Shown: positions 3,489 to 62,005 of the stretch, in pieces | Layout of the letters: every line of letters begins with the position of its first letter | Numbering within the stretch: the first letter of the stretch is position 1 | Source of the DNA: an uncultured Alphaproteobacteria bacterium | GTDB lineage: Bacteria; Pseudomonadota; Alphaproteobacteria; RF32; CAG-239 | NCBI GenBank assembly: GCA_910584385.1 | Contig: CAJUAK010000006.1 | Location: forward strand, 41,546 to 105,545 | Length of the DNA: 64,000 bases | Direction: 5' to 3' | Program-made: the position numbers and the translations under genes | The notes under the pieces: model-generated | What the model was told of the DNA's origin: nothing | Databases searched by the model: none | Seen by the model: only the letters and a program-made list of their open reading frames with translations

Positions 3489-3513
3489 AGCCCCGGAACT
3501 TCGGGGCTTTTTT
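3489..3513 (+). terminator. rho-independent terminator
   Basis: AGCCCCG-GAACTT-CGGGGCT hairpin followed by TTTTTT, immediately after the stop codon at 3483. Confidence 0.7.
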
Positions 3514-3572
3514 GAGCTTATCAGACAACGCCTGAAAGAAAAATCAGGCTTTTCTGTTTTATACGGTTAAGA

Positions 3573-3601
3573 TTGACGAGCTTTCAAAAAAGTGGTATAC
3601 T
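3573..3601 (+). promoter_or_regulatory. near-consensus sigma70 promoter TTGACG-N17-TATACT
   Basis: TTGACG at 3573-3578, an exact 17-nt spacer, and TATACT at 3596-3601. It lies about 100 nt upstream of the ATG at 3700. Confidence 0.5.
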
Positions 3602-3699
3602 AGCTTTTGTTATTAACGTTTATGTTCAATTATTAATCACGAGGAATAAGGCTTGGAACCCACGCGCCTCATAAAATAAAGACGAAAGCAAAATAAATT

Positions 3700-5445
3700 A
3701 TGTTAACTTACCTCTTGTTTGCCCTCATGCTCGGCCTTCTGGCTCTCCTCTTCCCCTTCCTTATCGATAAGGAAGACAGAGAAGAAGCTTGGATCCCTGC
3801 AATTATCGTGGGGATTTGCAGCTTTCTGTTCTGGGGAGCCCTTAACTGGCTGTTGCTGCCTGTCATCTCGCCGGATACGCCGGCGATGTGGATAGAACTA
3901 GCCCTAAGCCTCTGCTTCTACGGATGCCTGTCGTCTCTTCTTGACTATTCAAAAGCAGGAAAGAAGATTATCATCGGCTTGGCGGCTGCCGGAGCACTCG
4001 GCTTGGCTTTTGTAGGCCTCTATTCCTGGGATATCTTTCACAGCAGCAAAAAGTACAATCTTTTGCAGGTGGAAGAAACACAGGACAGCATTGAAAATAC
4101 CATTTCGCCCATTCCCGTGGAAAAGATGGCCATTATCAATGAAAACGTCGCCAGAGCTCTGGTGAACCAGAAAATGAACGACCTTGGCAATCGCTGTGAA
4201 ATCGGCACCTTTACCAAGCAGAGCTTTACCGGGAAATTCACAGCTAAAGAATTCAACGGCAATGTGGTCAATATCGATTACCAAAACCAAATCGTTTATG
4301 TCGCTCCGCTTGAGCACACAAGCTTCTGGAAATGGAAAAAATATCGCCACACCGAAGGATATGCATTAGTCAATGCCAGCGATCCTTCCGAGTATTACCT
4401 CATTTGCGAGGTGAACGGAGAACCTCTCAAGCTGAAATATCTTGAAAGCGCCCACTTTGGCGATAATATTGAAAGATATGTGCGTACGCACGGCTTTCAA
4501 AACAAGCGCCTTAGCGACTTTGGCATTGAGCTTGACGAAAACGGACGCCCGTTTAACGTGATTTCCGTTTTGGAAAACCAAATCATGTGGGGAACGCCGC
4601 TGGCAACAGGTTCTGTCATTGTTGACGTCCAGACGGGAGATATTAAGGAATATGACATTGAACATACTCCAAGCTTTGTTAATCTGGTTCAACCGCGAAA
4701 CGTTGTGGAAGACCTGATTTACTACTGGGGAGAATATGTTCACGGTTATGTCGATTTCTCAGACAAGGACAGAAAACGCGCAACCCCCGGCATGGATATC
4801 GTCCATGACGGAAAAGACGGCTGCTGCTATTATGTCGGCATTCAAAGCAAGGCAAATGCTGATTCAGACGCTGTGGCAACCATCGGGTTCTTAAAAATTA
4901 ATACCATCACCGGAAAGGCTACTTTCTTTAAGCGTGAAGGCATTAACGAACCTGCTGCAAAAAAAGCCATGGCCGCAGACATTTCCGTTGCAAAAGACAT
5001 CCAGCTTGGCACTGTCGAACTGGATGACGCTGTCTTCTATAACATTGAAGGCATCCCGACTTATTTTGCAACATTTATAAGCACAAAGGACAATATGCCT
5101 AAATATTACGGCTTTTGCTCCGCTTATAATAAAGAAGTCGTCGGGGTTGGCACTTCTCTGCAGAGTGCAAAGGCAGCCTATTTGAAATCCCGCGCCGAAT
5201 ATGAACAGCGCCAAGGATTGAAATCATCGGCTGCAGACGTTTCTTCCGTTACCCGCAAGGTTACGGTTGCAGAGAAAGTACAGGAAGGAAACTGCTATTA
5301 TTTCCGTTTCAATGAAACCGGAGATACGGTATTTTATGCATTTTCCGAATTGCTTCCCGAGGTACGTTGGCATAATGAAAAACCGACGATTACCTACCGC
5401 AAAAGCAATGAAACTTCTATTGCTTTGAGCGATTATTCGAAGTAA
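3700..5445 (+). CDS. hypothetical polytopic membrane protein: four N-terminal TM helices plus a ~450-aa soluble domain
   Basis: 581-aa ORF with coding-like composition. I recognise no family motif. It has its own promoter and terminator. Confidence 0.6.
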   Translation: MLTYLLFALMLGLLALLFPFLIDKEDREEAWIPAIIVGICSFLFWGALNWLLLPVISPDTPAMWIELALSLCFYGCLSSLLDYSKAGKKIIIGLAAAGALGLAFVGLYSWDIFHSSKKYNLLQVEETQDSIENTISPIPVEKMAIINENVARALVNQKMNDLGNRCEIGTFTKQSFTGKFTAKEFNGNVVNIDYQNQIVYVAPLEHTSFWKWKKYRHTEGYALVNASDPSEYYLICEVNGEPLKLKYLESAHFGDNIERYVRTHGFQNKRLSDFGIELDENGRPFNVISVLENQIMWGTPLATGSVIVDVQTGDIKEYDIEHTPSFVNLVQPRNVVEDLIYYWGEYVHGYVDFSDKDRKRATPGMDIVHDGKDGCCYYVGIQSKANADSDAVATIGFLKINTITGKATFFKREGINEPAAKKAMAADISVAKDIQLGTVELDDAVFYNIEGIPTYFATFISTKDNMPKYYGFCSAYNKEVVGVGTSLQSAKAAYLKSRAEYEQRQGLKSSAADVSSVTRKVTVAEKVQEGNCYYFRFNETGDTVFYAFSELLPEVRWHNEKPTITYRKSNETSIALSDYSK

Positions 5446-5497: not shown

Positions 5498-6922
5498 TTG
5501 CATTTTCGGAGCCGGGCGGCTGTCGTTTGCCTTTGGGCGCTGTGGCTTTCTGAGTTCCTGCTGCTTCATTTCCGTATAGGAAATAAGCTTTTTATCTATG
5601 TTCATTTTTGTTAAATCCGGCATATTTAAGACCGTTATTCCAAGGCTCGTCGCCGCAAGCACCATATTTATCTGCAATTTTTGAGATTTGATCCCTGCCA
5701 TATCTATCTTTTTTACATTTGCATTGGTTTGGCGCTCTTTAAGCATGTCATACACCATCTGATAATCGGCATTTTCCACTTTGATTTTTGTTTCTTCCTC
5801 ATATTGGACTTTGCCTTTTTCGCTCTTAATAATGAGCGATTTGTCTTTCTGGGGGATTATTTCAATTTTTTTCTCATGGCTTGCGGCACTTTTTTTATAA
5901 AAACCGGCAATCGGCTTATGCCAATCCTGCATTTTACCTTTACCGGTTTCAATCACCTCTCCTTCAATGCAAGAAACAGCTTCTTTTGTTTTTGCTTTCC
6001 TGTATTTTTGCATTAAAAGCCCATCGCCTGGTTTAAATATTTGCGGTTTGACGGTTCCCTTTTCAAGCTTTAGCCCGTCAAGCACCTTGTTGAACACCTC
6101 CATTGCCGGCATAAATTGCAAAAGTGTTGCTCCGGAGGCATATTGTTCCTGCAAAACCTCTTGTGATGGCATTTTGGCAATCTGTTCTGAAACTTTTCTA
6201 TATTCGCCAATATCGGCTTTGGCTGTAAAAGCCGTGATGGCAGCATTATAGCGATATGTTCCCTCACCTTTGTAATTCATTTTACTTACGATACGGGAGA
6301 CGGCGTTTGAATTTGTAATAACCATGGAAATGTTGCTTTTAATTTCATCCCATTCGCAGTTTTTTTGAAACAGCTTTATATATTTTGCTATAATTTTATT
6401 TCTTTCTTCTTCCGAATATTTTTTCCATACTTTTGACCCCAGAGGAATGGACGTTTTGCTTAAGATATCTATTTTGCCGTTTTTTTGCTTATTTGCCAGA
6501 ATAAGTTCCGTACTGGCGCCGCCGCTGTCAACAACCAGGGCATATCCCTTAAAGCGCACCCTTTCGCAAGCCGCTGCAGCAGTTAAGCGCGCCTCTTCCA
6601 AAGGATGAATAATCCGGGCATAGATATTGCATTTTTTGCTAATTTCATTAAGGACTTCTTCGCTATTCTCGGCAATTCGGAAACCGCCGGTAGCAATAAT
6701 TTCAATATTTTCAGGATGAACTTTTCTGGCAGAAGCCTCTAAAACAAAACCCCAAATTTTTTCTGCCAAATCTTTGCCGGCAATATGCTTTTCATCCACC
6801 ATTTCAACAGGCAGCGGCTTATATGAAAAAAATGAGTAATCATCATTTTTTATTGACATTTTAAGGCCGTTAGAACCTATTTCAACAACAGCAACGCCAG
6901 GCATAACCATACATCTCCGCAC
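5477..6922 (-). CDS. Ppx/GppA-family phosphatase with an atypical Lys-rich C-terminal region
   Basis: N-terminal half shows ASKHA/Ppx-GppA motifs (VVEIGSNGLKMSI, LVVDSGGASTELIL). The C-terminal ~180 aa are K/E-rich, with no recognisable HD domain. The true start is probably the internal Met of MVMPGV. Confidence 0.7.
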   Translation of the reverse strand: MRRCMVMPGVAVVEIGSNGLKMSIKNDDYSFFSYKPLPVEMVDEKHIAGKDLAEKIWGFVLEASARKVHPENIEIIATGGFRIAENSEEVLNEISKKCNIYARIIHPLEEARLTAAAACERVRFKGYALVVDSGGASTELILANKQKNGKIDILSKTSIPLGSKVWKKYSEEERNKIIAKYIKLFQKNCEWDEIKSNISMVITNSNAVSRIVSKMNYKGEGTYRYNAAITAFTAKADIGEYRKVSEQIAKMPSQEVLQEQYASGATLLQFMPAMEVFNKVLDGLKLEKGTVKPQIFKPGDGLLMQKYRKAKTKEAVSCIEGEVIETGKGKMQDWHKPIAGFYKKSAASHEKKIEIIPQKDKSLIIKSEKGKVQYEEETKIKVENADYQMVYDMLKERQTNANVKKIDMAGIKSQKLQINMVLAATSLGITVLNMPDLTKMNIDKKLISYTEMKQQELRKPQRPKANDSRPAPKMQEKTRPV

Positions 6923-10493: not shown

Positions 10494-11789
10494 ATGCTCT
10501 TAGCCTCTTTGATTTTAATAATCTGCTATTTGATTTTATTCACGGAAAAACTTAACCGGGCTGTTGTTGTCCTGGTTGGCGCCTGCATTATGATTTTTGC
10601 CGGCGTCATGACGCAGAAGCAGGCTTTTGACGGCATTGACTTTAACACGCTTGCCTTGCTTATCGGCATGATGATTATCGTCGGAATTGCTGAAAAATCC
10701 GGCATGTTTCAATATGCTGCCGTCAAAACGGCAAAAACAGTTAAGGCAAATCCCCGGCTTTTGCTTATGTCTTTGGCTGTTGTAACGGCTGTTTTCTCTG
10801 CACTTTTAGATAATGTTACCACGGTTTTATTAATTGTTCCGGTTACGTTTCAAATTGCAAAAAAATTAAAAATACAGCCCTATCCTTATCTTTTGGCCGA
10901 AATTTTTGCTTCCAACATCGGCGGAACGGCAACATTAATCGGCGACCCGCCGAACATTCTTATCGGCTCGGCACTTGAATTGTCTTTCATGGACTTTGTA
11001 TACGAGCTGACCCCGGTTGTTTCGCTTACAATGTTAACCCTTATTTTTGTTTTTGATTTTGCCTACGGGAAAAGGCTTTTTGCCAACCCCGAAGACAAGG
11101 CTTCAATCTTGCAAATGGATGAAAAAACATGCATCACAGATAAAAATCTGCTTATAAAATCCTTGACTGTTTTAACCTTGGTTATTGCCGGTTTTATTGC
11201 TGCAGAACATTTGCACATCGCTAATGGTACAATCGCCATATTTGGCGCAGCGGTTATGATGTGGCTTTATAGTTTCAATAATCCGCACCAAGAACGGGAA
11301 CATAAGGTTGAGCAGGCTTTTTCCCTCGTAGACTGGACGACAATATTCTTTTTTGCCGGGCTTTTTGCCTTGGTTTACGGATTGGAAATTTCCGGCGTTT
11401 TAGAAATGCTTGGGCATAAATTTGCCGAATATAGCGCGGGTTCTATTGAAAAAGCGGCAATGTCCGTTTTATGGATTTCTGCGATTATATCGACAGCCAT
11501 CGATAACATCCCTTTTGTGGCAACAATGATTCCCATGCTAAAATCTATGGAACCGGCAATGGGCGGGCGAGAAGCCATGATGCCCGTCTGGTGGGCACTT
11601 TCCCTTGGCGCCTGCTTTGGCGGAAACGGTTCTTTAATCGCAGCTTCGGCCAATGTTATTGTTGCCGGCATCGCCCAAAAAGAAAACCATCCGATAAGTT
11701 TTGTAAAGTTTCTAGCATGGTCGCTGCCGGTTATGCTCGGCTCGGTGGCAATTGCTGCAATTTATCTGCATTTTCGTTACTTTAATTAA
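10494..11789 (+). CDS. ArsB/NhaD-superfamily anion permease (YbiR/CitMHS-like), paralog 1
   Basis: 431 aa with ~11 TM helices and family motifs LLDNVTTVLLIVPV and ASNIGGTATLIGDPPNILI. Confidence 0.75.
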   Translation: MLLASLILIICYLILFTEKLNRAVVVLVGACIMIFAGVMTQKQAFDGIDFNTLALLIGMMIIVGIAEKSGMFQYAAVKTAKTVKANPRLLLMSLAVVTAVFSALLDNVTTVLLIVPVTFQIAKKLKIQPYPYLLAEIFASNIGGTATLIGDPPNILIGSALELSFMDFVYELTPVVSLTMLTLIFVFDFAYGKRLFANPEDKASILQMDEKTCITDKNLLIKSLTVLTLVIAGFIAAEHLHIANGTIAIFGAAVMMWLYSFNNPHQEREHKVEQAFSLVDWTTIFFFAGLFALVYGLEISGVLEMLGHKFAEYSAGSIEKAAMSVLWISAIISTAIDNIPFVATMIPMLKSMEPAMGGREAMMPVWWALSLGACFGGNGSLIAASANVIVAGIAQKENHPISFVKFLAWSLPVMLGSVAIAAIYLHFRYFN

Positions 11790-11847
11790 GAGTTTATTAG
11801 CCTTTATTGTTATATTTTTGCATTGAACTTAACAATTAAGGTGAAAT

Positions 11848-13149
11848 ATGAATCCACAAATTTTAGCGACAGCAATTGTTTTAATTGCTTATCTGGTCTT
11901 ATTTACCGAGAAAATGAATCGTGCCGTGGTTGCGCTTCTTGCTGCTGCGGTTATGATTTTTGCAGGTATATTTGATCAAAAAACGGCCTTTATGGGCATT
12001 GATTTTAACACCCTTGCTTTGCTTATCGGCATGATGACGATTGTGGGCATCTGTGAGAAGTCCGGCATGTTCCAGTTTGTTGCCATCTGGTCAGCAAAAA
12101 AAGTAAAAGCAAATCCTCGGGGCATTTTGATTATTTTGGCATTAGTTACCGCCGTCTTTTCTGCTTTTCTGGACAATGTTACGACAGTTTTGTTAATTGT
12201 TCCCGTTACTTTCCAGATTACAGAAAGGTTAAAGATTAACCCCTACCCTTATTTGCTGGCGGAAATTTTTGCCTCGAACATCGGCGGAACAGCCACGCTG
12301 ATTGGCGATCCTCCAAACATTCTTATCGGATCTGCCTTGAATTTATCTTTCACGGATTTTCTCTTTGAGTTAACACCAATTGTTTCGATCATTATGGTTG
12401 TTTTGATTATTACCTTTGACTTTTTCTGGGGACGCCATTTGCAGGCTGACCTTAACGGGAAAAAGCAGGTTATCCGCATGCGTGAAAAGAATTGCATCAA
12501 AGACAAGGTCTTGTTGGCTAAATGCTTGGGCGTTCTTGGCGCTGTTATTATCGGTTTTGTCTGCGCAGAGCATCTGCATATTGCCAACGGCACAATCGCC
12601 ATGTTTGGCGCGGCTGTTTTGCTCCTGCTTTATACTTTTGGCGATAAGCACAGCGAACGCGACCAAAAAGTCGAGGCGATTTTGGGGCATGTCGACTGGA
12701 CAACGATTTTCTTCTTCTCCGGTTTGTTTGTTATTGTGTACGGATTGGAAGAAACCGGCGTTTTAAGCATGCTGGCCGGCAAAATGGTTGAAATGACGGA
12801 AGGGTCAATTGAAAAAACAGCATTGCTCGTTATGTGGAGTTCTGCACTTTTCTCCTCTGCCATCGATAACATTCCTTTTGTTGCCACGATGATTCCGATG
12901 ATTAAATCAATGGAAGAAGCGATGGGCGGCAGAGAAGTTATGATGCCTGTTTGGTGGGCACTTTCTCTTGGCGCCTGCCTCGGCGGCAACGGAACATTGA
13001 TTGGCGCTTCGGCCAACGTTATTGTTGCCGGAATGGCACAAAGGGAAGGACATCCGATTAGTTTCGGCGGCTTCCTGCTTTGGTCCATTCCTGTTATGCT
13101 GGTATCTGTTTTAATTGCAACGGCATTTTTGTACGTTCAATATTTCTAA
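11848..13149 (+). CDS. ArsB/NhaD-superfamily anion permease, paralog 2 (tandem duplicate)
   Basis: 433 aa, collinear with paralog 1 and roughly two-thirds identical to it. Same motifs. Confidence 0.75.
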   Translation: MNPQILATAIVLIAYLVLFTEKMNRAVVALLAAAVMIFAGIFDQKTAFMGIDFNTLALLIGMMTIVGICEKSGMFQFVAIWSAKKVKANPRGILIILALVTAVFSAFLDNVTTVLLIVPVTFQITERLKINPYPYLLAEIFASNIGGTATLIGDPPNILIGSALNLSFTDFLFELTPIVSIIMVVLIITFDFFWGRHLQADLNGKKQVIRMREKNCIKDKVLLAKCLGVLGAVIIGFVCAEHLHIANGTIAMFGAAVLLLLYTFGDKHSERDQKVEAILGHVDWTTIFFFSGLFVIVYGLEETGVLSMLAGKMVEMTEGSIEKTALLVMWSSALFSSAIDNIPFVATMIPMIKSMEEAMGGREVMMPVWWALSLGACLGGNGTLIGASANVIVAGMAQREGHPISFGGFLLWSIPVMLVSVLIATAFLYVQYF

Positions 13150-16662: not shown

Positions 16663-16739
16663 TGGTCGGGACGAGAGGATTTGAACCTCCGACTTCTTGC
16701 ACCCCATGCAAGCGCTCTACCAGACTGAACTACGTCCCG
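16663..16739 (-). tRNA. tRNA-Pro (anticodon GGG)
   Basis: Reverse complement is CGGGACGTAGTTCAGTCTGGTAGAGCGCTTGCATGGGGTGCAAGAAGTCGGAGGTTCAAATCCTCTCGTCCCGACCA. It folds as a cloverleaf with a 7-nt anticodon loop AUGGGGU and an encoded CCA. Confidence 0.9.
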
Positions 16740-31688: not shown

Positions 31689-31820
31689 AAGTGCCCTCCT
31701 CTCTTTAATTTTCGTTTGTTTATAGTATAGCGCCATTTTCTGAAATTTCCACTATTTTTTTTATTTTTTTAGTCTTTACATTTTCTTTTTTTTGAGGATT
31801 AATATTCCTAGTCAAACTTA

Positions 31821-32366
31821 TTGAATAAAATGGATATTATGAAAAAAATTTTGAAAAACATTACGGCTTGCTGTTCGCTTTTTCTTTTGGCCGCTTGCCA
31901 TCCTCAGACACCACCCCAGACAGAGCCTTTGCCGCAAGTCAACCCTATTCCCTCGCATGCATTAGGAATTATCGGACAGGTTGAGCCTGTTTACTTTCTG
32001 CCAATGAAATCGCCTTTTCCTTCGCGCATTGACACCGGGGCTGAAACATCTTCGTTAGATGCCTACAACATTCGCACTTTTGAAAGAGACGGCGAAAAAT
32101 GGGTGTCTTTTGCGATGAAAAACCGCGAAACAGGCGAAGTGCACAAATTTGAAAAAGAACTCGTCCGCAAAACAACGATTAAACGTTCCCACAAAGATGA
32201 GAAAAGAAAAGTCGTTTTAATGAACATTAAAATCGGCGGTCAGACTTTGAATGCCGAGTTTACTTTGGCCAACCGCAGCGATTTTGAATATCAGGGCCTG
32301 ATTGGGCGCAATATTTTAACGGGGCGCGCCATCGTTGATACCGCCCTGACCAATACCCTCCATTAA
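31821..32366 (+). CDS. retropepsin-like aspartyl protease (RimK-associated 'ATP-dependent zinc protease' family, DUF785-like)
   Basis: 181 aa with a lipoprotein-like signal (LLAAC) and the aspartyl protease motif RIDTGAETSSLDA. Confidence 0.75.
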   Translation: MNKMDIMKKILKNITACCSLFLLAACHPQTPPQTEPLPQVNPIPSHALGIIGQVEPVYFLPMKSPFPSRIDTGAETSSLDAYNIRTFERDGEKWVSFAMKNRETGEVHKFEKELVRKTTIKRSHKDEKRKVVLMNIKIGGQTLNAEFTLANRSDFEYQGLIGRNILTGRAIVDTALTNTLH

Positions 32367-32381
32367 TCTCGGAGATTTAAC

Positions 32382-33923
32382 ATGCTAAAAAAATTGTTTT
32401 CCGTTCGCAAAATTTTGTCTTACGGCCTTATATTGTCAACCATTTATGCCTGTTACGGCATTTATGTAAAAGTCCACTACTGGGGATTTAATTTTGCGCC
32501 TAAACAAAACGCAAATGTCTGGACAATCGAGGCTCATATAAATTTTGAACCCAACGGCGAGCCTATTAAGGTGTCTCTTGCAACCCCTTCTACCGCAAAA
32601 GAATTTAAAGTTTTGGAAGAGGATGTCATCGCCCCAGACTATAAAGTAAAAAAAATCACGCAAGACGGGGTTAAGCGCTATCTTTTGACCAGCCCTGCGC
32701 AAAAAGAACTGCAAAACATCTATTACAGGGTTTTGCTTTTTGACAATATCAACGGCAAAGGCAAAGAAACGGCTCCTCAGCCCAAAGCTCCCGAAAAGCC
32801 TTATATGGACGAACAAATGGCTGCCGTTGCCCAGGAATTGCTGGAGCTCGCCAAACCTTTGGAAGGCGATTATCCGCAAAAGCTTATCCGCCTGTTTAAC
32901 CAAAATCCGCCGAATCCGACTGTTGTGAGTTTTCTGCCGCTTAAAAAAAGCCAAAAGGATACTGTTGAAGCTATTCGCAACCTGTTGGCCTTAAAAAATA
33001 TTCCAACCCGCACGGCAAGAGGAATAAAGCTGGCAGAAAGCAAAAAAGCATTTTCTCCCGACTTAATGCTGGAAGCCTATATCGACAAACGCTGGAAGCT
33101 TTATAACATCCAAACGGCGCAAATCGGGCTGCCGGAAGATTTTGTTATTTTTCAACGGGGCGGAGAATCGCTTATGGATGTTGAAGGCGGAGAAAATTCA
33201 AGCGTTCAGTTTTCAGTATTAAAATCTATCCATTCTTCTTTTAACTTAGCCGGAAAAAGGGCAGAACTTGCCAAACAAAAAAGCAGCTTTGAATATTCTA
33301 TTTATAATCTGCCGCTTAAAGAACAAAACACGATTAAATGGCTGTCTATTTTTCCGCTTGCCATTTTAGTCATCGTTTTAATGCGCAATGTTGTCGGCAT
33401 TCAAACCATGGGGACATTTACGCCGATGCTGCTTTCCATGTCTTTGGTCAAAACGGGATTTTGGCAGGGGCTGCTGTGTTTTGCCGTTATTGTCGGCCTC
33501 GGGCTTATTATCCGCACCCTGCTTTCCCGGTTAAACCTCCTGCTCGTCCCGAGGATTTCCGCCGTTGTTATCTTTGTTATCCTGATTATGGAAAGCTTAA
33601 CCGTGTTTGGATATAAGATGGATTGGGACATCGCCTTATCTGCGGTATTTTTCCCGATTATCATCATGGCGTGGATTATAGAGCGCGCTTCCATCACCTG
33701 GGAAGAGGACGGTCCGGTCAATGCCGGCAAGGAGGTTCTGTGGAGCCTTGTTGTTGCCATTATTACTTATTTTGTAATCTGCAATGAATATATCCGCCAT
33801 ATTATGTTTGCTTTTAACGAATTAAACCTTGTCATCTTGTTTATCGTTATGCTTCTTGGCACTTATACCGGTTACAGATTAACAGAGTTGCGGCGCTTCG
33901 CCCCTTTGGTCAAAGGAAAATAA
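32382..33923 (+). CDS. inactive transglutaminase-like domain fused to a C-terminal 7TM module
   Basis: 513 aa with one N-terminal TM helix, a ~300-aa extracytoplasmic domain and ~7 C-terminal TM helices. This is the architecture repeatedly linked with RimK-like ligases. Confidence 0.65.
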   Translation: MLKKLFSVRKILSYGLILSTIYACYGIYVKVHYWGFNFAPKQNANVWTIEAHINFEPNGEPIKVSLATPSTAKEFKVLEEDVIAPDYKVKKITQDGVKRYLLTSPAQKELQNIYYRVLLFDNINGKGKETAPQPKAPEKPYMDEQMAAVAQELLELAKPLEGDYPQKLIRLFNQNPPNPTVVSFLPLKKSQKDTVEAIRNLLALKNIPTRTARGIKLAESKKAFSPDLMLEAYIDKRWKLYNIQTAQIGLPEDFVIFQRGGESLMDVEGGENSSVQFSVLKSIHSSFNLAGKRAELAKQKSSFEYSIYNLPLKEQNTIKWLSIFPLAILVIVLMRNVVGIQTMGTFTPMLLSMSLVKTGFWQGLLCFAVIVGLGLIIRTLLSRLNLLLVPRISAVVIFVILIMESLTVFGYKMDWDIALSAVFFPIIIMAWIIERASITWEEDGPVNAGKEVLWSLVVAIITYFVICNEYIRHIMFAFNELNLVILFIVMLLGTYTGYRLTELRRFAPLVKGK

Positions 33924-33924
33924 C

Positions 33925-34881
33925 ATGCTGATTTCCTGGTTAAAATCATTTACCTGTCCGTCTAAGCTTCAGGAAAAAGGCATTTTAGGCATGAATGCCA
34001 GAAATTATAAAGTAATTTCCAAATGCAACAAACGCTGCCTTTACCCTCTGGTTGACAATAAAGTGCAAACAAAGCTTTTGGCTCAAAAAGCAGGCATTAA
34101 CACGCCGAATATGATTGGCGTCATTGAATATCAGTGGCAGGTAAAAGACTTTACAAAACTGGTCGAAAACAAATCAGAATTTGTTATAAAACCGGCTCAC
34201 GGAAGCGGCGGCAAAGGCGTGTTGGTTATTAAAGAACATAAAGGCGAAGATTTTATCGGGCCTTCCGGCAAGAAGTTTTCTTATAACGAAGTCTACCAGC
34301 ATATTTCCAATATTTTAAGCGGGCTTTACAGTCTGGGCGGAAAATATGATGTTGCGCTGATTGAAGATATGGTTCATTTTAGCGATGTTTTTCAAAATTT
34401 CAGCTATCAGGGCGTGCCTGATGTCCGGGTTATCGTTTATAAAGGCTATCCGGTTATGTCAATGATGCGCCTTTCAACAGCGGCTTCCGGCGGGCGGGCC
34501 AATTTGCACCAAGGCGCCGTTGGCGTGGGAATCGACATTCATACCGGCAAAGCGCTTAATGCCGTGCAATATAACCGTCCGCTTTATCATCATCCCGATA
34601 CCGGCGCAGACCTTAGCACGATTCAAGTTCCTTTTTGGCGGGAGCATCTGTTGCTGGCTACAAAAGGTTTTGAAATGACCGGACTTGGCTATATGGGTGC
34701 GGATATCGTCCTTGATAAAGAAAGAGGGCCTATGATGCTTGAACTTAATGCCCGCCCCGGCTTGGCAATTCAAATCGCAAACGGTTCGGGGTTAGTCTCA
34801 AAACTTAAGCAAGTGGATAAATGCTATCCTAAAAATTATACGGCAGAAGAACGGGTCGATTTTATTTTAAATCAACAATAA
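33925..34881 (+). CDS. alpha-L-glutamate ligase-like ATP-grasp enzyme (RimK-related)
   Basis: 318 aa with the ATP-grasp motifs FVIKPAHGSGGKGV and MLELNARPG. Separated from the upstream gene by 1 nt. Confidence 0.8.
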   Translation: MLISWLKSFTCPSKLQEKGILGMNARNYKVISKCNKRCLYPLVDNKVQTKLLAQKAGINTPNMIGVIEYQWQVKDFTKLVENKSEFVIKPAHGSGGKGVLVIKEHKGEDFIGPSGKKFSYNEVYQHISNILSGLYSLGGKYDVALIEDMVHFSDVFQNFSYQGVPDVRVIVYKGYPVMSMMRLSTAASGGRANLHQGAVGVGIDIHTGKALNAVQYNRPLYHHPDTGADLSTIQVPFWREHLLLATKGFEMTGLGYMGADIVLDKERGPMMLELNARPGLAIQIANGSGLVSKLKQVDKCYPKNYTAEERVDFILNQQ

Positions 34882-34945: not shown

Positions 34946-35560
34946 ATGGCTGAAGTCAAAAAACTTATCAAATCATCAGAAACAAAAAAAATAAAATCAA
35001 GCGATACAAAGGGCTTAAAAGGCTCTGAAACAAAAAAGCTGACCATGAGCGAAACCCGGGCAAAAAAAATTAAACACGCCTATCCGGCAAAAGATGCAGA
35101 AAATACGCTGCTGCTCAAATTAAAAGACGGCGATGTTGTTATTGAAATGTATCCGGAAGATGCGCCTAACCATGTTGCCCGAATTAAAGAACTGGTTCGC
35201 AGCGGTTTTTATAACGGGCTAAAATTTCATCGCGTTATTGACGGATTTATGGCGCAGACCGGCTGCCCTCTTGGAAACGGCACCGGCGGCAGCGGCAAAA
35301 AGCTCAAGGCAGAGTTTAACCGCCGCCCGCACAAACGCGGCACGGTTTCGATGGCGCGTGCTATGGATGTTGATTCTGCAGACAGCCAATTCTTTATTTG
35401 CTTTGCCGATTGCGATTGGCTCAACGGGCAATATACGGTTTGGGGCGAAGTTACTTCCGGCATGGAACATGTGGATGCTATCAAACGCGGCACCGGCATG
35501 AATGGTTCCGTCTCCCAGCCAGATGAAATCATCAGCCTCAGCGTTTTGGCCGATATGTAA
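34946..35560 (+). CDS. cyclophilin-type peptidyl-prolyl cis-trans isomerase with an N-terminal Lys-rich repeat extension
   Basis: 204 aa with the cyclophilin core (FHRVIDGFMAQTGCP, SMARAMDVDSADSQFFI). The N-terminal ~40 aa carry KSSETKK-like repeats. Confidence 0.85.
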   Translation: MAEVKKLIKSSETKKIKSSDTKGLKGSETKKLTMSETRAKKIKHAYPAKDAENTLLLKLKDGDVVIEMYPEDAPNHVARIKELVRSGFYNGLKFHRVIDGFMAQTGCPLGNGTGGSGKKLKAEFNRRPHKRGTVSMARAMDVDSADSQFFICFADCDWLNGQYTVWGEVTSGMEHVDAIKRGTGMNGSVSQPDEIISLSVLADM

Positions 35561-35563
35561 CTC

Positions 35564-35709
35564 ATAGATATCCCCCTGTAAACAGGGGGTTCTATAGTAG
35601 CTACAAACCTAACGGTTTGATTACGCGCGTTGGCGTGGAGCAGTGTTGTTCCAACACCTTGGCATTCAGCCCCGAATAAACTCGGGGTTTTCTGTAAGGC
35701 ATTAATAAA
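35564..35709 (+). ncRNA. 146-bp structured repeat element, copy A (candidate multicopy sRNA or MITE)
   Basis: About 93% identical to 61345-61490. It contains four hairpins (CCCCCTG/CAGGGGG, ACGC../GCGT, GTGTTG/CAACAC, CCCCGA/TCGGGG), the last followed by TTTTCTG, which is terminator-like. Confidence 0.6.
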
Positions 35710-35720
35710 GCTTTGCATAC

Positions 35721-35755
35721 AAAAACAGCCGGATTTTTAATCCGGCTGTTTTCTT
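35721..35755. terminator. bidirectional terminator
   Basis: CAGCCGGAT-TTTTA-ATCCGGCTG hairpin flanked by A and T runs, between ppiase (+) and fabZ (-). Confidence 0.65.
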
Positions 35756-35768
35756 TGCGTTAAAGCCT

Positions 35769-36218
35769 TTAATCGGCAATCATTGCCGTAAATTCAGCTT
35801 CGCTGACAACCTGTCCGTCCACTCTTGTTTCCCCTTTGAAAACAAAAACATTGCGGCGGGCTTTAATTTTTTCGACATGCATTCTTAATTGATCGCCGGG
35901 TTTTACAGGCTTGCGGAACTTTACGCCGTCAATTGACATAAAGTAAACGCCCTTTTTGTTATCTTTATAGTTTTCGAAAGAAGAAATAACCAAAGCGCCA
36001 GCCGTTTGCGCCATTGCTTCAATCTGCAAAACGCCCGGCATAACTGGATTTCCCGGAAAATGCCCTTGAAAAAATTCTTCATTCATGGTTACATTTTTCA
36101 AGCCTGTCCCTTTTTCTCCGGGAACTTCAACTTCCAGCCTGTCCACCAGCAAAAACGGGTAGCGGTGCGGAAGCATATCCATGATTTCTTCAATATGGTA
36201 AATTTTGTTTTCAGACAT
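35769..36218 (-). CDS. fabZ: 3-hydroxyacyl-ACP dehydratase
   Basis: 149 aa with the hotdog-fold motifs HFPGNPVMPGVLQIEAMAQ. Confidence 0.9.
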   Translation of the reverse strand: MSENKIYHIEEIMDMLPHRYPFLLVDRLEVEVPGEKGTGLKNVTMNEEFFQGHFPGNPVMPGVLQIEAMAQTAGALVISSFENYKDNKKGVYFMSIDGVKFRKPVKPGDQLRMHVEKIKARRNVFVFKGETRVDGQVVSEAEFTAMIAD

Positions 36219-54370: not shown

Positions 54371-54455
54371 TGGTGCGGGCGAAGAGACTCGAACTCTTAA
54401 GCCTCGCGGCACCAGATCCTAAGTCTGGCGTGTCTACCAATTTCACCACGCCCGC
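54371..54455 (-). tRNA. tRNA-Leu (anticodon UAG)
   Basis: Reverse complement is GCGGGCGTGGTGAAATTGGTAGACACGCCAGACTTAGGATCTGGTGCCGCGAGGCTTAAGAGTTCGAGTCTCTTCGCCCGCACCA. It has a long variable arm and an encoded CCA. Confidence 0.9.
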
Positions 54456-58368: not shown

Positions 58369-61176
58369 TTAGGCGTCTTGTTCATCAACAACAGGTTCTG
58401 AAACAGGAGCTTCAGCATTATCGTCATCGGCAACGCTTTCGCCTAAGACTTCGCTTCCGGTTTCCTCTTCCAATTCCTCATCATCGCCTTCATCGGCATC
58501 CAACCAGGTTACGGAAACAACCTTTTCATTTTCTGCCGTGCGGAACAATATGACACCCTGGGTTTTTCTTCCGGCTATGCGGATATCGTCTACCGGCATG
58601 CGGATAAGCTTTCCGGCATCGGTTACCATCATAATCTGTTTTCCGGCTTCAATCGGGAAAGAGCTTGCAATCTCTTTGTTGCGCGCCGACATTTCCATAT
58701 TGGCGATGCCTTGTCCGCCGCGCCCCGTAACGCGATATTCATAAGAAGATGAACGCTTGCCGTAACCGGTTGTCGTTACAGATAAAATAAATTGTTCATT
58801 CTCTGCCATTTTCAAATATTCGTCAGCCGTCAAGGTTGAAAGCAGCCCTGTTTCTTCCGGCGTTACTTTTTCGCCGCAGCGTTCTGCCTCCATACGCTTA
58901 ATTGCAGAAGAAATTTTAGAATATTCGTCGCGCTGTTCGGAAGTTGCATCGCTGTGTTTTAAGACAGACATAGAAATAACTTCGTCATTCTCAGACAGTT
59001 TAATGCCTCGGACGCCGGTTGAATTTCTGCCGACAAATACGCGGACTTCCGTTACCGGGAAGCGGATGCATTTTCCGGATTTGGCCGCCAGCATTATATC
59101 ATTGTCTTCGTGGCAAATACGGACATTGACCAATTTGTCTCCGTCATCCAATTTCATGGCGATTTTACCGTTAGACTGGACGTTTACGAAATCCATCAGA
59201 GAATTGCGGCGGACATTTCCCTGCGCCGTGGCAAACATAATGGACATATCTTTGCATTCTGCTTCATTTTCCGGCAATTTCATAATCGTGGTAATATTTT
59301 CGCCTTCATCCAAGGGCAGCAGGTTAACAAAAGGCTTGCCTTTTGAAGTGGGCGACCCGAGAGGCAGCTTATAGACTTTCATCTTATAAACTAAACCTTT
59401 GGAAGAGAAGAACAAAACCGGCGTATGCGTACTGGCGACAAAGAGTCTGGTCACGAAATCTTCCTCTTTGGTTGCCATGCCGGATTTGCCTTTTCCGCCG
59501 CGTTTTTGAGCTTTATATGCGTTTAACGGAACACGTTTAATGTAACCGGCATCCGTTACCGTTACCACCATTTCTTCACGCTGAATCAGAGATTCGATAT
59601 CTTGGTCAAATTCGATATCTTCAATCTTGGTCAAGCGCGGCGTGGCATAATTGTCTTTTATGCGGACCAACTCATCGCGCATAATGCCGTAAAGCTTCTC
59701 GCGGCTTCCTAAAATGGACAGGCATTCTTTAATTTCTTCGCCAATCGTAATTAGTTCTTCGTGGATTTTATCACGTTCCAAACCGGTCAACCGCTGCAGT
59801 TTCAAGTCCAAGATAGCCTTGGCCTGAGCTTCGGATAAGCGGTAGGTTCCATTTTCAACCGCACGTCCCGGTTCATCAATCAATTTAACCAAAGCTTCCA
59901 CATCTCCTGCCGGCCAAGCCTTGCGCAGCAACGCATCTTTAGCATCCTGCGGCGTGGGGGATGTGCGGATTAATTCAATGACGGGATCAAGATTTTCTAC
60001 CGCGATTGCCAAACCAACCAAAGTATGTGCCCGGTCTCTGGCTTTATTTAATTCAAAAATTGTCCGGCGGCGGATAATTTCTTCACGAAACTCAATAAAG
60101 GCCTGGATAATTTCTTTTAAATTCATCATCATCGGGCGGCCATGGTTAATTGCCAGCATATTCATGCCAAAACTGGTTTGCAGCGGCGTATATTTATAAA
60201 GCTGGTTTAACACGACATCCGCCTGAAAATCGCGTTTGACCTCGATCACGACGCGGACGCCCTGACGGTCTGATTCATCGCGGATATCAGAAATGCCTTC
60301 CAGTTTCTTTTCTTTAACCAGTTCGGCAATCCGTTGAACCAACGAAGCTTTGTTAACCTGATAGGGAATTTCGTGGACAATGATGGCTTCTTTATCCTTA
60401 TGCAATTCTTCAATCGTGCATTTGGCGCGCATCATAACCGAACCGCGCCCGGTCAGATATGCTGATTTTGCACCGCCATAACCGAGAATCTGCCCGCCGG
60501 TCGGGAAATCAGGCCCCGGAACAATTGTAATGAGGTCTTCTATTGTGATATCAGGATTATCAATATAAGCACAGCAGGCATCGACAACTTCGCCCAAGTT
60601 ATGCGGCGGAATATTGGTTGCCATACCGACAGCGATACCATTTGCCCCATTTACAAGCAGGTTAGGATAGCTTGCCGGCAAAACAACCGGCTCTTGCAAG
60701 CTTTCATCATAGTTGGGCATGAAGTCAACGGTATCTTTATCAATATCGTCAATCAGCGAGTGGGCAACTTTGGCAAGCCTGGCTTCCGTATAACGCATTG
60801 CCGCGGCGCTGTCGCCATCCATGGAACCGAAGTTCCCCTGCCCGTCAACCAAAGTAACGCGCATGGAGAAAGGCTGCGCCATACGAACCATTGCCTCATA
60901 AACAGAGCTGTCGCCATGCGGGTGGTATTTACCGAGAACATCACCGACGATACGCGCCGATTTACGGAAAGGACGGTTGTAATCATAGCCATTTTCAAAC
61001 ATAGAATAAATAATGCGGCGATGCACGGGCTTCAAGCCGTCTCTTACATCCGGCAACGCGCGCGCCACGATAACGCTCATGGCATAATCCAGATAAGAAC
61101 GGCGCATTTCCTCGGTAATGGAAACCGGAGAAATGTCTTCTTTTTTATCTGTTACTTGTGTAAAATCTTCACTCAC
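58369..61176 (-). CDS. gyrA: DNA gyrase subunit A
   Basis: 935 aa with the active-site Tyr context [10 protein letters not shown], a QRDR-like region, C-terminal beta-pinwheel repeats and an acidic tail. Confidence 0.95.
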
Positions 61177-61344: not shown

Positions 61345-61490
61345 ATAGATATCCCCCAGTAAACAGGGGGTTCTATAGTCGCTACAAACCTAACGGTTTG
61401 ACCACGCTCGTTGGCGTGGAACGGTGTTGTTTCAACACCTTGGCATTCAGCCCCGAGTAAACTCGGGGTTTTCTGTAAGGCATTAATAAA
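61345..61490 (+). ncRNA. 146-bp structured repeat element, copy B
   Basis: About 93% identical to 35564-35709 and in the same orientation. Ends with the CCCCGAG-TAAA-CTCGGGG hairpin followed by a T-run. Sits in the gyrA-ssb intergenic region. Confidence 0.6.
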
Positions 61491-61493
61491 AAT

Positions 61494-61523
61494 GAAAAAA
61501 GCCCGTTTTAACGGGCTTTTTTT
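61494..61523. terminator. bidirectional terminator downstream of ssb
   Basis: GCCCGTT-TT-AACGGGC hairpin flanked by an A6 and a T7 run. Confidence 0.65.
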
Positions 61524-61537
61524 GAGATATCTTAAAA

Positions 61538-62005
61538 CTAGAACGGAATATCATCATCCAAATCCGCCGGAGCCGCCGCCGGAGAAGCATCCCATCCGGA
61601 ATTTGAAGCAGAACCGGAGAACACATCATTCCCGCCTGCGGGAACGCCGTCTCCACGGCCATCCAACATAACCAGATTTCCTGAGAAGTTTTGCAAAACA
61701 ACTTCCGTCGTATATTTTTCAGCGCCGGTATTATCCTCCCATTTGCGGGTTTGGAGCTGCCCTTCCAAATATACTTTTGAACCTTTGCGCAGATATTTTT
61801 CTGCAACTTCCGCCAATTGCGGATTAAAAATAACGACCCGGTGCCATTCGGTTCTTTCTTTGCGTTCGCCGCTGAGCTTGTCTTTCCAGTTATCTGTCGT
61901 TGCAACGCTTAAATTTACGATTTTAGCGCCGTTTGCCGTGTTGCTGACCCGGGGATCAGCGCCAAGATTGCCAACCAAAATGACTTTGTTAATGCTTCCT
62001 GCCAT
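61538..62005 (-). CDS. ssb: single-stranded DNA-binding protein
   Basis: Start at the Met of [17 protein letters not shown] fold, Gly-rich tail and C-terminal DDDIPF. Confidence 0.9.

Follow-up and report, generated by a model that had tools for sequence, protein, structure and literature searches.

Twice in a 64,000-nucleotide stretch of DNA from an uncultured Alphaproteobacteria bacterium (contig CAJUAK010000006.1, positions 41,546 to 105,545 of the forward strand; hereafter the window), a strongly folded repeat of about 146 bp occupies an intergenic space beside a transcription terminator, at 35564-35709 (copy A) and 61345-61490 (copy B). The question raised by this locus is whether the repeat represents a family of small RNA (sRNA) genes or a miniature mobile element, two readings that the first-pass annotation of the sequence had left side by side. 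With a probability of about 0.93, the repeat is a non-autonomous, gene-less derivative of the IS200 group (IS200/IS605 family), that is, a palindrome-associated transposable element (PATE), an assignment made because its ends are common to elements that carry the transposase gene tnpA. The comparisons directly support its membership of a dispersed family, its sharp ends, the sharing of those ends with tnpA-carrying elements, the TTTAT target, the lack of target duplication and the bias towards terminators. The repeat is thus a new, unannotated member of a well-understood class, and ordinary selfish DNA.

Ends shared with transposase-carrying elements

Both copies lie on the + strand of the window and differ by 9 substitutions and 0 indels (94% identity), in agreement with the recurrence at about ten substitutions that had been noticed at first, and their homology breaks off sharply at either end, the flanks being unrelated. 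Within the window, 35-mers from either repeat end, searched with up to 3 mismatches, match copies A and B only, and 0 of 100 dinucleotide-preserving shuffles gave a match to these ends. The initial extent of 146 bp holds as regards its boundaries, which recur in about 78 copies, but its last five nucleotides, ATAAA at 35705-35709 and 61486-61490, are pre-existing target and not inserted DNA, because empty sites retain ATAAA. The element proper therefore measures 141 nt and, by insertion sequence (IS) convention, lies on the - strand, with the left end (LE) of copy A at 35704 and its right end (RE) at 35564 (35564-35704); copy B is oriented in the same way (61345-61485). These limits are based on the family boundaries in the about 78 copies, on an empty site and on the ends common to tnpA-carrying elements. 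An element of 141 nt is too short for a transposase, and the open reading frames (ORFs) across the repeat are only spurious long frames on other strands.

The family to which the repeat belongs is indicated by an element in the 8-kb locus L021, which also holds a repeat copy. At positions 3507-4073 of this locus, the ends of the repeat flank a 142-aa ORF antisense to the + orientation of the repeat; the 5' end of this element is ATAGATATCCCCCAGTAAACTGGGGGTTCTATAG and its 3' end ...GTCTGTAAGGCATTAATAC, ...GGGGTAGTCTGTAAGGCATTAATAC, both as in the repeat. The encoded protein belongs to Pfam Y1_Tnp (E 1.9e-31), scores 123 bits on the NCBIfam model transpos_IS200 (cut-off 55) and 29 bits on REP_Tyr_transpos (cut-off 80), and matches solved IS200/IS605 transposases, including IS608 TnpA and ISDra2 TnpA. 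In a blastn comparison with copy A the match was restricted to the two ends, and the alignment of the autonomous elements does not contain the central segment. A further autonomous copy, interrupted by a contig end (L024), has an LE hairpin identical to that of the repeat. A TnpA with 92% identity (P0003) was detected in at least 5 genomic contexts, each with the same RE (...GAACCCCCAGTTTACTGGGGGATATCTAT), a related LE and TTTAT before it. Elements of this type are 559 bp long and consist of a 70-nt left end, starting with the 12 nt TGCAAGCTTTGC, a tnpA of 429 nt and a 60-nt right end (L196, 883-1441; also L197-L205). The flank before LE is TGTAT in the autonomous element of L021 and CTTAT in L024, as opposed to TTTAT in all P0003-type copies, and the RE of the repeat is identical in the tnpA-carrying elements.

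Beyond the window, a single 21-mer scan of species-representative genomes recovered 112 loci in 35 species-level metagenome-assembled genomes (MAGs), with a maximum of 15 loci per MAG; the probe was an exact 21-mer from the 3' hairpin (LE), and these copy numbers are lower bounds and biased. All 35 assemblies are MAGs of uncultured Alphaproteobacteria or of a "proteobacterium". Blastn with copy A (query positions 25-170) showed about 78 full-length copies of 78-94% identity whose ends correspond to window positions 35564 and 35709, and about 20 more copies are interrupted by contig ends, as is typical of a repeat at which short-read assemblies break off. There is 100% identity over 147 nt among eighteen copies found at separate loci of 11 species-level assemblies (L105, L100, L094, L085, L074, L073, L071, L059, L058, L057, L042, L035, L021, L018, L011, L010, L008 and L004), which suggests, from sequence identity, very recent activity or horizontal spread between species. 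In at least one case, an insertion is common to two species (L035 and L019).

Shortened and compound forms were also observed. Versions of about 49 nt in which the core is deleted, so that only the ends remain and two hairpins are merged into one, occur in L061 (~6500-6548) and L113 (~1134-1182), the latter with the hybrid hairpin CCCCCAG...CTCGGGG; like the full copies, they adjoin terminators. In L008 (~175-381), a second copy, without its first ~7 nt, comes directly after a full one, and short hairpin-only fragments precede full copies in L069 (~5560-5596) and L067 (~5654-5690).

Both window copies fold into five local hairpins, the outer stem nested around the first being counted within it, and the folding z-scores of the + strand are -4.7 (copy A) and -5.9 (copy B). 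The structured character first reported for the repeat is thereby borne out, although the number of consecutive hairpins is five and not four. The subterminal LE hairpin of copy A (35669-35688, - strand) pairs CCCCGA with TCGGGG at 35670-35675 and 35682-35687 around the loop ATAAAC, and the subterminal RE hairpin (35564-35595, - strand) pairs CCCCCTG with CAGGGGG at 35572-35578 and 35583-35589 inside an outer stem, ATAGA/TCTAT, that includes the putative RE cleavage motif TCTAT at 35564-35568 (- strand). Between them, the central segment (35604-35657) contains three short hairpins at 35604-35619, ~35621-35638 and 35643-35657. The corresponding terminal hairpins of copy B, also on the - strand, lie at 61353-61370 (RE, with an A-A mismatch) and 61450-61469 (LE). 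On the + strand, the LE hairpin of copy A is GC-rich and followed by TTTTCTG, as was originally described, yet it fell short of the criteria of a consensus terminator scan. About 80% alike, the terminal hairpins are arranged in direct orientation (top strand: LE AGAAAA-CCCCGAG-TTTAC-TCGGGG; RE ATAGAA-CCCCCAG-TTTAC-TGGGGG), and, measured from the corrected boundary, the distance from hairpin to end is 17 nt at LE (22 including TTTAT) versus 8 nt at RE.

The five local hairpins from single-sequence folds were used as the structure model, and an RNAalifold consensus gave implausible long-range pairing in the middle of the element. Against this model, 50 distinct copies have 96.6% of cells paired and 8 pairs with compensatory double changes; 0 of 500 shuffles reach the observed values, and slid controls fall far below them. 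The double changes are found mostly in the RE hairpin (four base pairs), whose variants include CCCCCAG/CTGGGGG, CCCCGGG/CCCGGGG, CCCTGGG/CCCAGGG and CCTCGGG/CCCGAGG. At one RE pair, the window copies show the path of change, from A-T in the family master to A-A in copy B and T-A in copy A. The invariance of the LE hairpin is forced by the 21-mer ascertainment, and the LE guide lies inside the 21-mer. In the divergent copy L029, RE has AGG with CCTAT, compared with AGA with TCTAT elsewhere, a single case that hints at compensation between guide and motif.

The repeat shows the features that define the IS200/IS605 family (PMC7290912, PMC3333891) and its PATE derivatives (PMC3119063), and in the mechanism proposed for it mobilisation by TnpA appears probable from the sequence. 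The copies would keep just the two subterminal hairpins that Y1 (HUH) TnpA binds on single-stranded DNA, together with ~70 nt of unrelated structured filler. With TnpA supplied in trans by the autonomous relative of 559 bp, the top strand (the - strand of the window) would be excised through cleavage after the flanking TTTAT at LE and after TCTAT at RE, and the element would be reinserted 3' of another TTTAT, with no target duplication. Putative guides lie 5' of the hairpin feet, namely AAAA with TTTA(T) at LE and AGAA with TCTA(T) at RE. A guide in this position is a principle of the family (PMC3333891, PMC7290912), and its bases here are complementary to the first three bases of the cleavage motif, so that a guide pairing like that of IS608 may be proposed by analogy.

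Insertion sites and terminator context

Insertion was assessed in four pairs of filled and empty sites (L105 and its paralogous site in L105, L015/L044, L060/L014 and L093/L039). Removal of 141 nt (ATAGAT...CTA) from the filled site of L105 gives exactly the empty paralogous site, and the other three pairs are consistent with this. No target-site duplication distinguishes filled from empty sites, all of the latter keep ATAAA, and the insertion junction has a 3-nt ATA ambiguity. Almost every repeat copy has TTTAT before its LE, and empty sites keep the motif; in copy A it is the pentanucleotide at 35705-35709 (- strand; ATAAA on +), immediately 5' of LE, and in copy B that at 61486-61490 (- strand), 4 nt past the T-run of the ssb terminator. 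The repeat also has no terminal inverted repeats, as 2 of 10 positions match when its first 10 nt (ATAGATATCC) are compared with the reverse-complemented last 10 nt of the element proper (TAATGCCTTA). The term miniature mobile element, used in the first-pass annotation, is therefore appropriate as to mobility, since the repeat has the ends of a Y1-transposase element, while a classical MITE (miniature inverted-repeat transposable element), the derivative of a DDE transposon that the expected boundary duplications would have marked, is rejected because neither inverted repeats nor duplications are present.

For the window copies, the expected empty alleles would read ...TAACTC|ATAAAGCTTTG... 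at copy A and ...CGTTAAC|ATAAAAATGAAAAAAGCCC... at copy B, in both cases with no duplication. Among 80 loci of fabZ relatives collected by a FabZ scan, none carries the element, and none provides an orthologous empty site for copy A because the gene order after fabZ differs in these relatives: the close ones have the order fabZ-terminator-lpxA and lack the convergent PPIase gene. A FabZ with the same sequence as that of the window is present in GCA_948554095.1 and 129 collection blocks, and the lineage is common in metagenome assemblies.

Both copies are intergenic, as first annotated. Copy A lies between the PPIase gene (+ strand, stop at 35560) and fabZ (- strand, stop at 35769), and copy B between gyrA (- strand, start at 61176, 169 nt beyond RE) and ssb (- strand, stop at 61538). 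The separate terminator noticed just after each copy was recovered by a terminator scan as the native bidirectional terminator of fabZ (-) and the PPIase gene (+) at 35722-35752 and, supported by the ORFs, as the native terminator of ssb at 61495-61522 (- strand). Both lie outside the element and form its insertion context; both are locus-specific, and the sequence next to copy A is unrelated to the flank of copy B. A native terminator stands beside each window copy because the great majority of occupied TTTAT sites come directly after a terminator hairpin and T-run. In 67 of 78 copies (86%), a hairpin ends no more than 10 nt 5' of the occupied TTTAT; on the opposite flank this holds for 3 of 77, and the share is 9% when every other TTTAT site of these loci is considered and 14.5% for unoccupied intergenic TTTAT. 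The autonomous element has a terminator context in 4 of 5 genomic settings. Terminator-like sequences upstream of insertion sequences, with the strongest signal for IS200/IS605, are described in a 2026 survey (PMC13548323).

With neighbour orientation taken from a greedy choice of non-overlapping ORFs, the LE-side gene is transcribed towards the element in 59 of the 68 cases that could be assigned, which places the element directly beyond the terminator of a co-directional gene, namely fabZ for copy A and ssb for copy B. Furthermore, 56 of 75 copies (p = 2e-5), both window copies among them, have their top strand on the locally G-rich strand, which is the lagging-strand template. This bias is consistent with insertion into that template and gives indirect support to strand-specific excision and integration by TnpA. 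On the RE side, about 15 of 78 copies have a convergent gene that ends in the TAG of the element's terminal ATAG (for example L093 4582-4588 against L039 ~2800-2815). Because the target ATAAA includes a TAA of its own, an in-frame stop would be re-created when the element inserts at a stop codon overlapping the target.

Some enrichment near terminators is expected because the T-run of a terminator supplies the TTT of the target. The bias may reflect either an active preference for hairpin-adjacent sites or purifying selection elsewhere, both of which fit the contrast. Active homing of the IS200 lineage to intrinsic terminators is a tentative proposal, and somewhat doubtful: the complex of TnpA and LE would prefer a TTTAT right after an extruded hairpin and T-run on single-stranded DNA, and the element would be built to be near-neutral there. 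As regards this last point, the RE (...CTAT, or ATAG on the other strand) seems to restore the stop of the convergent gene, and the LE hairpin with its T-run seems to restore the terminator. However, selection against insertions elsewhere could yield the same contrast of 86% versus 14.5%.

Known relatives and rival explanations

PATEs are non-autonomous IS200/IS605 derivatives described in Haloquadratum (PMC3119063) and Geobacillus (PMC10055086). The repeat resembles them in having no terminal inverted repeats, no target duplication and similar near-terminal hairpins in direct orientation; in the longer gap between hairpin and end at the target-adjacent end, a one-sided gap also described for PATEs (PMC3119063), with a target of 4-5 nt next to it; and in having no room for a protein, ends common to a transposase-carrying element and core-deleted versions of ~50 nt, a form of repeat-mediated deletion to ends only that has been reported for PATEs (PMC3119063). 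It differs from them in its host, a bacterium (an uncultured gut alphaproteobacterium); in its partner, which is of the IS200 group with tnpA only and not of the IS605/IS1341 type with tnpB; in the striking association of its copies with terminators; and in its central 70 nt, which do not come from the partners found.

The single Y1 tnpA gene of the partner is shared with IS200 of Salmonella and IS1541 of Yersinia, and an LE hairpin that resembles a terminator is known from Salmonella IS200 (PMC4513863). A terminator-like sequence immediately upstream is a trend across the IS200 group and its family (PMC13548323). In contrast to IS200, which has 707 bp, the autonomous relative here has 559 bp, the window holds only the gene-less 141-nt derivative, and no similarity to IS200 RNA families was detected in Rfam scans. 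IS608 and ISDra2, with solved structures, have homologous TnpA proteins, and they share with the repeat the guide 5' of each hairpin foot, putative here and read from the letters of the DNA, as well as a lagging-strand-consistent orientation. Insertion 3' of TTTAT is shared with ISGst2, for which TTTAT is the known target motif (PMC10055086); unlike the partner found here, however, IS608, ISDra2 and ISGst2 also carry tnpB. Classical MITEs, Correia, ERIC and RUP elements and bcr1 of the Bacillus cereus group are likewise multicopy, intergenic, strongly folded and ~100-150 bp long, and the mobility of bcr1 is tied to a TTTAT motif (PMC6542083); classical MITEs, however, are marked by terminal inverted repeats and by target duplications that DDE transposases create, and the repeat has neither.

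Several observations weigh against the assignment of the repeat to the IS200 group. No tnpA gene lies within the 64-kb window, and no direct parent was found, since none of the autonomous elements recovered contains the central ~70 nt. Two of the empty sites are paralogous and not orthologous, neither window copy yielded an orthologous empty site, and mobility is deduced from comparison only. The exact 21-mer ascertainment biases both the LE invariance and the copy numbers, and the orientation bias by GC skew is confounded with gene orientation. Finally, the central hairpins have 96-99% of cells paired and few double changes, which transposition alone would not obviously require.

Among the alternatives, the one that survives best, although it is unlikely, is that a mobile element has been co-opted by the host as a 3' untranslated region or terminator module, acting as a back-up terminator, as a stabilising structure or as insulation of a downstream promoter (gyrA for copy B). 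The about 15 of 78 copies that supply the TAG stop of the RE-side gene (including L093/L039), the LE hairpin and T-run facing that gene, the insertion shared by L035 and L019, the conserved central hairpins and the documented bidirectional terminator function of the IS200 LE hairpin (PMC4513863) all favour this explanation. However, a strong native terminator is already present a few nucleotides away at each site, so the added hairpin would be redundant, and the LE hairpin fails the consensus terminator scan. Moreover, the orientation of the copies tracks the terminator of the co-directional gene with no consistent functional partner, and the identical copies at many loci point to recent spread and not to long retention.

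A family of sRNA genes, transcribed from the + strand as RNAs of ~130-150 nt that end at the GC-rich hairpin followed by UUUUCUG, is very unlikely. This reading can draw on the strong structure (z -4.7 and -5.9) and on the hairpin and T-run at the 3' end of the + strand. In addition, Salmonella IS200 produces the antisense sRNA art200, which overlaps the 5' end of tnpA, opposite LE and beside a bidirectional terminator hairpin (PMC4513863), so that an analogous RNA is conceivable. An art200-like antisense promoter, however, would be expected near the start of tnpA, a region that the repeat does not have, and a scan in and upstream of both window copies found no sigma-70-like promoter. Rfam searches of the whole window at gathering thresholds, of copy A with its flanks at E<=10 and of the autonomous element at E<=1 returned only tRNAs and generic terminator-driven matches, and no family matches the repeat at E<=10. 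The - strand of copy A folds almost equally well (z -4.45 as RNA and -4.2 as DNA), and wobble-type mismatches in the stems are balanced between 28 G-T and 29 A-C, with no strand bias and hence no sign of a strand-specific RNA constraint; the double changes cluster in the hairpin predicted to bind the transposase. The sharp ends, the occurrence of these ends in a transposon and the TTTAT target, in turn, are all accounted for by transposition. The multicopy sRNA gene of the first-pass annotation thus finds no promoter, Rfam family or strand bias in its favour. Its terminator is the LE hairpin viewed from the antisense strand, and the adjacent separate terminator is the context of the insertion target and not part of a transcription unit, although read-through transcripts from neighbouring genes surely cover some copies.

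Slightly less probable again is a PATE that carries an omega RNA scaffold for a TnpB or IscB encoded elsewhere, in which the central hairpins would be the scaffold and the flank beyond RE the guide. PATEs are said often to encode omega RNAs (PMC10055086), and the central hairpins are conserved with no evident role in transposition. However, tnpA is the sole gene of the autonomous partners found, from which tnpB and iscB are absent (the loci were not systematically searched for TnpB), no Rfam family was matched on either strand, and no promoter-like site was detected. A repeat of the REP/REPIN type spread by a domesticated REP-associated tyrosine transposase (RAYT) is the most improbable of these readings. 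REPs, too, are short hairpins in intergenic DNA on which a Y1 transposase acts, often near gene ends (PMC3333891, PMC3337134), but the transposase scores (123 bits on the IS200 model and 29 on REP_Tyr_transpos, below its cut-off of 80) and the direct, not inverted, orientation of the hairpins led to its rejection; furthermore, the transposase gene itself has several copies in varied contexts, enclosed by the ends of the repeat, and the unit is 141 nt with defined ends and target. A two-copy segmental duplication in this genome, in keeping with the just two copies held by the window, is excluded, since similarity stops at the element boundaries, the flanks are unrelated and 112 further loci are present in 35 assemblies; a group IIC intron is dismissed because the repeat is far too small and has no reverse transcriptase.

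With the repeat taken as an IS200-group derivative, its presence in annotation marks an insertion and not an sRNA gene in at least 35 species-level MAGs of uncultured, apparently gut, Alphaproteobacteria, and it explains many contig breaks in those assemblies. The current understanding of the IS200/IS605 family is unchanged by these findings. The points of modest interest are the clean terminator association, the stop-regenerating end, the wide recent spread and the 559-bp autonomous relative. With ~80 copies of the repeat, several autonomous ones, a defined TTTAT target and empty sites, the family is a clean natural dataset on why IS200/IS605 elements sit downstream of terminators.

Minor features of the window

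Between the target of copy A and the fabZ terminator, positions 35710-35721 are GCTTTGCATAC, and the - strand reads ...GTATGCAAAGC and then TTTAT. The flank of copy A, GCAAAGCTTTAT, resembles the first 12 nt of the LE of P0003-type elements, TGCAAGCTTTGC. Short-word blastn on this possible LE remnant gave chance-level matches only, and the flank may have been left by a previous insertion at this terminator, or the resemblance may be due to chance.

Upstream of the PPIase gene, at ~31800-34881 (compare L001, 11338-14389), there is a conserved three-gene set, unrelated to the repeat, encoding a RimB-like protein, a transglutaminase-like protein with a 7TM domain and an ATP-grasp (ATPgrasp_ST) protein. 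Two tRNA genes were identified with Rfam tRNA on the - strand, at 16666-16739 (60.7 bits) and 54374-54455 (58.7 bits). At 10512-12819, two adjoining segments of ~1.36 kb are 66-68% identical (repeat families D1 and D2), and from their sequence they look like a tandem pair of paralogous genes.

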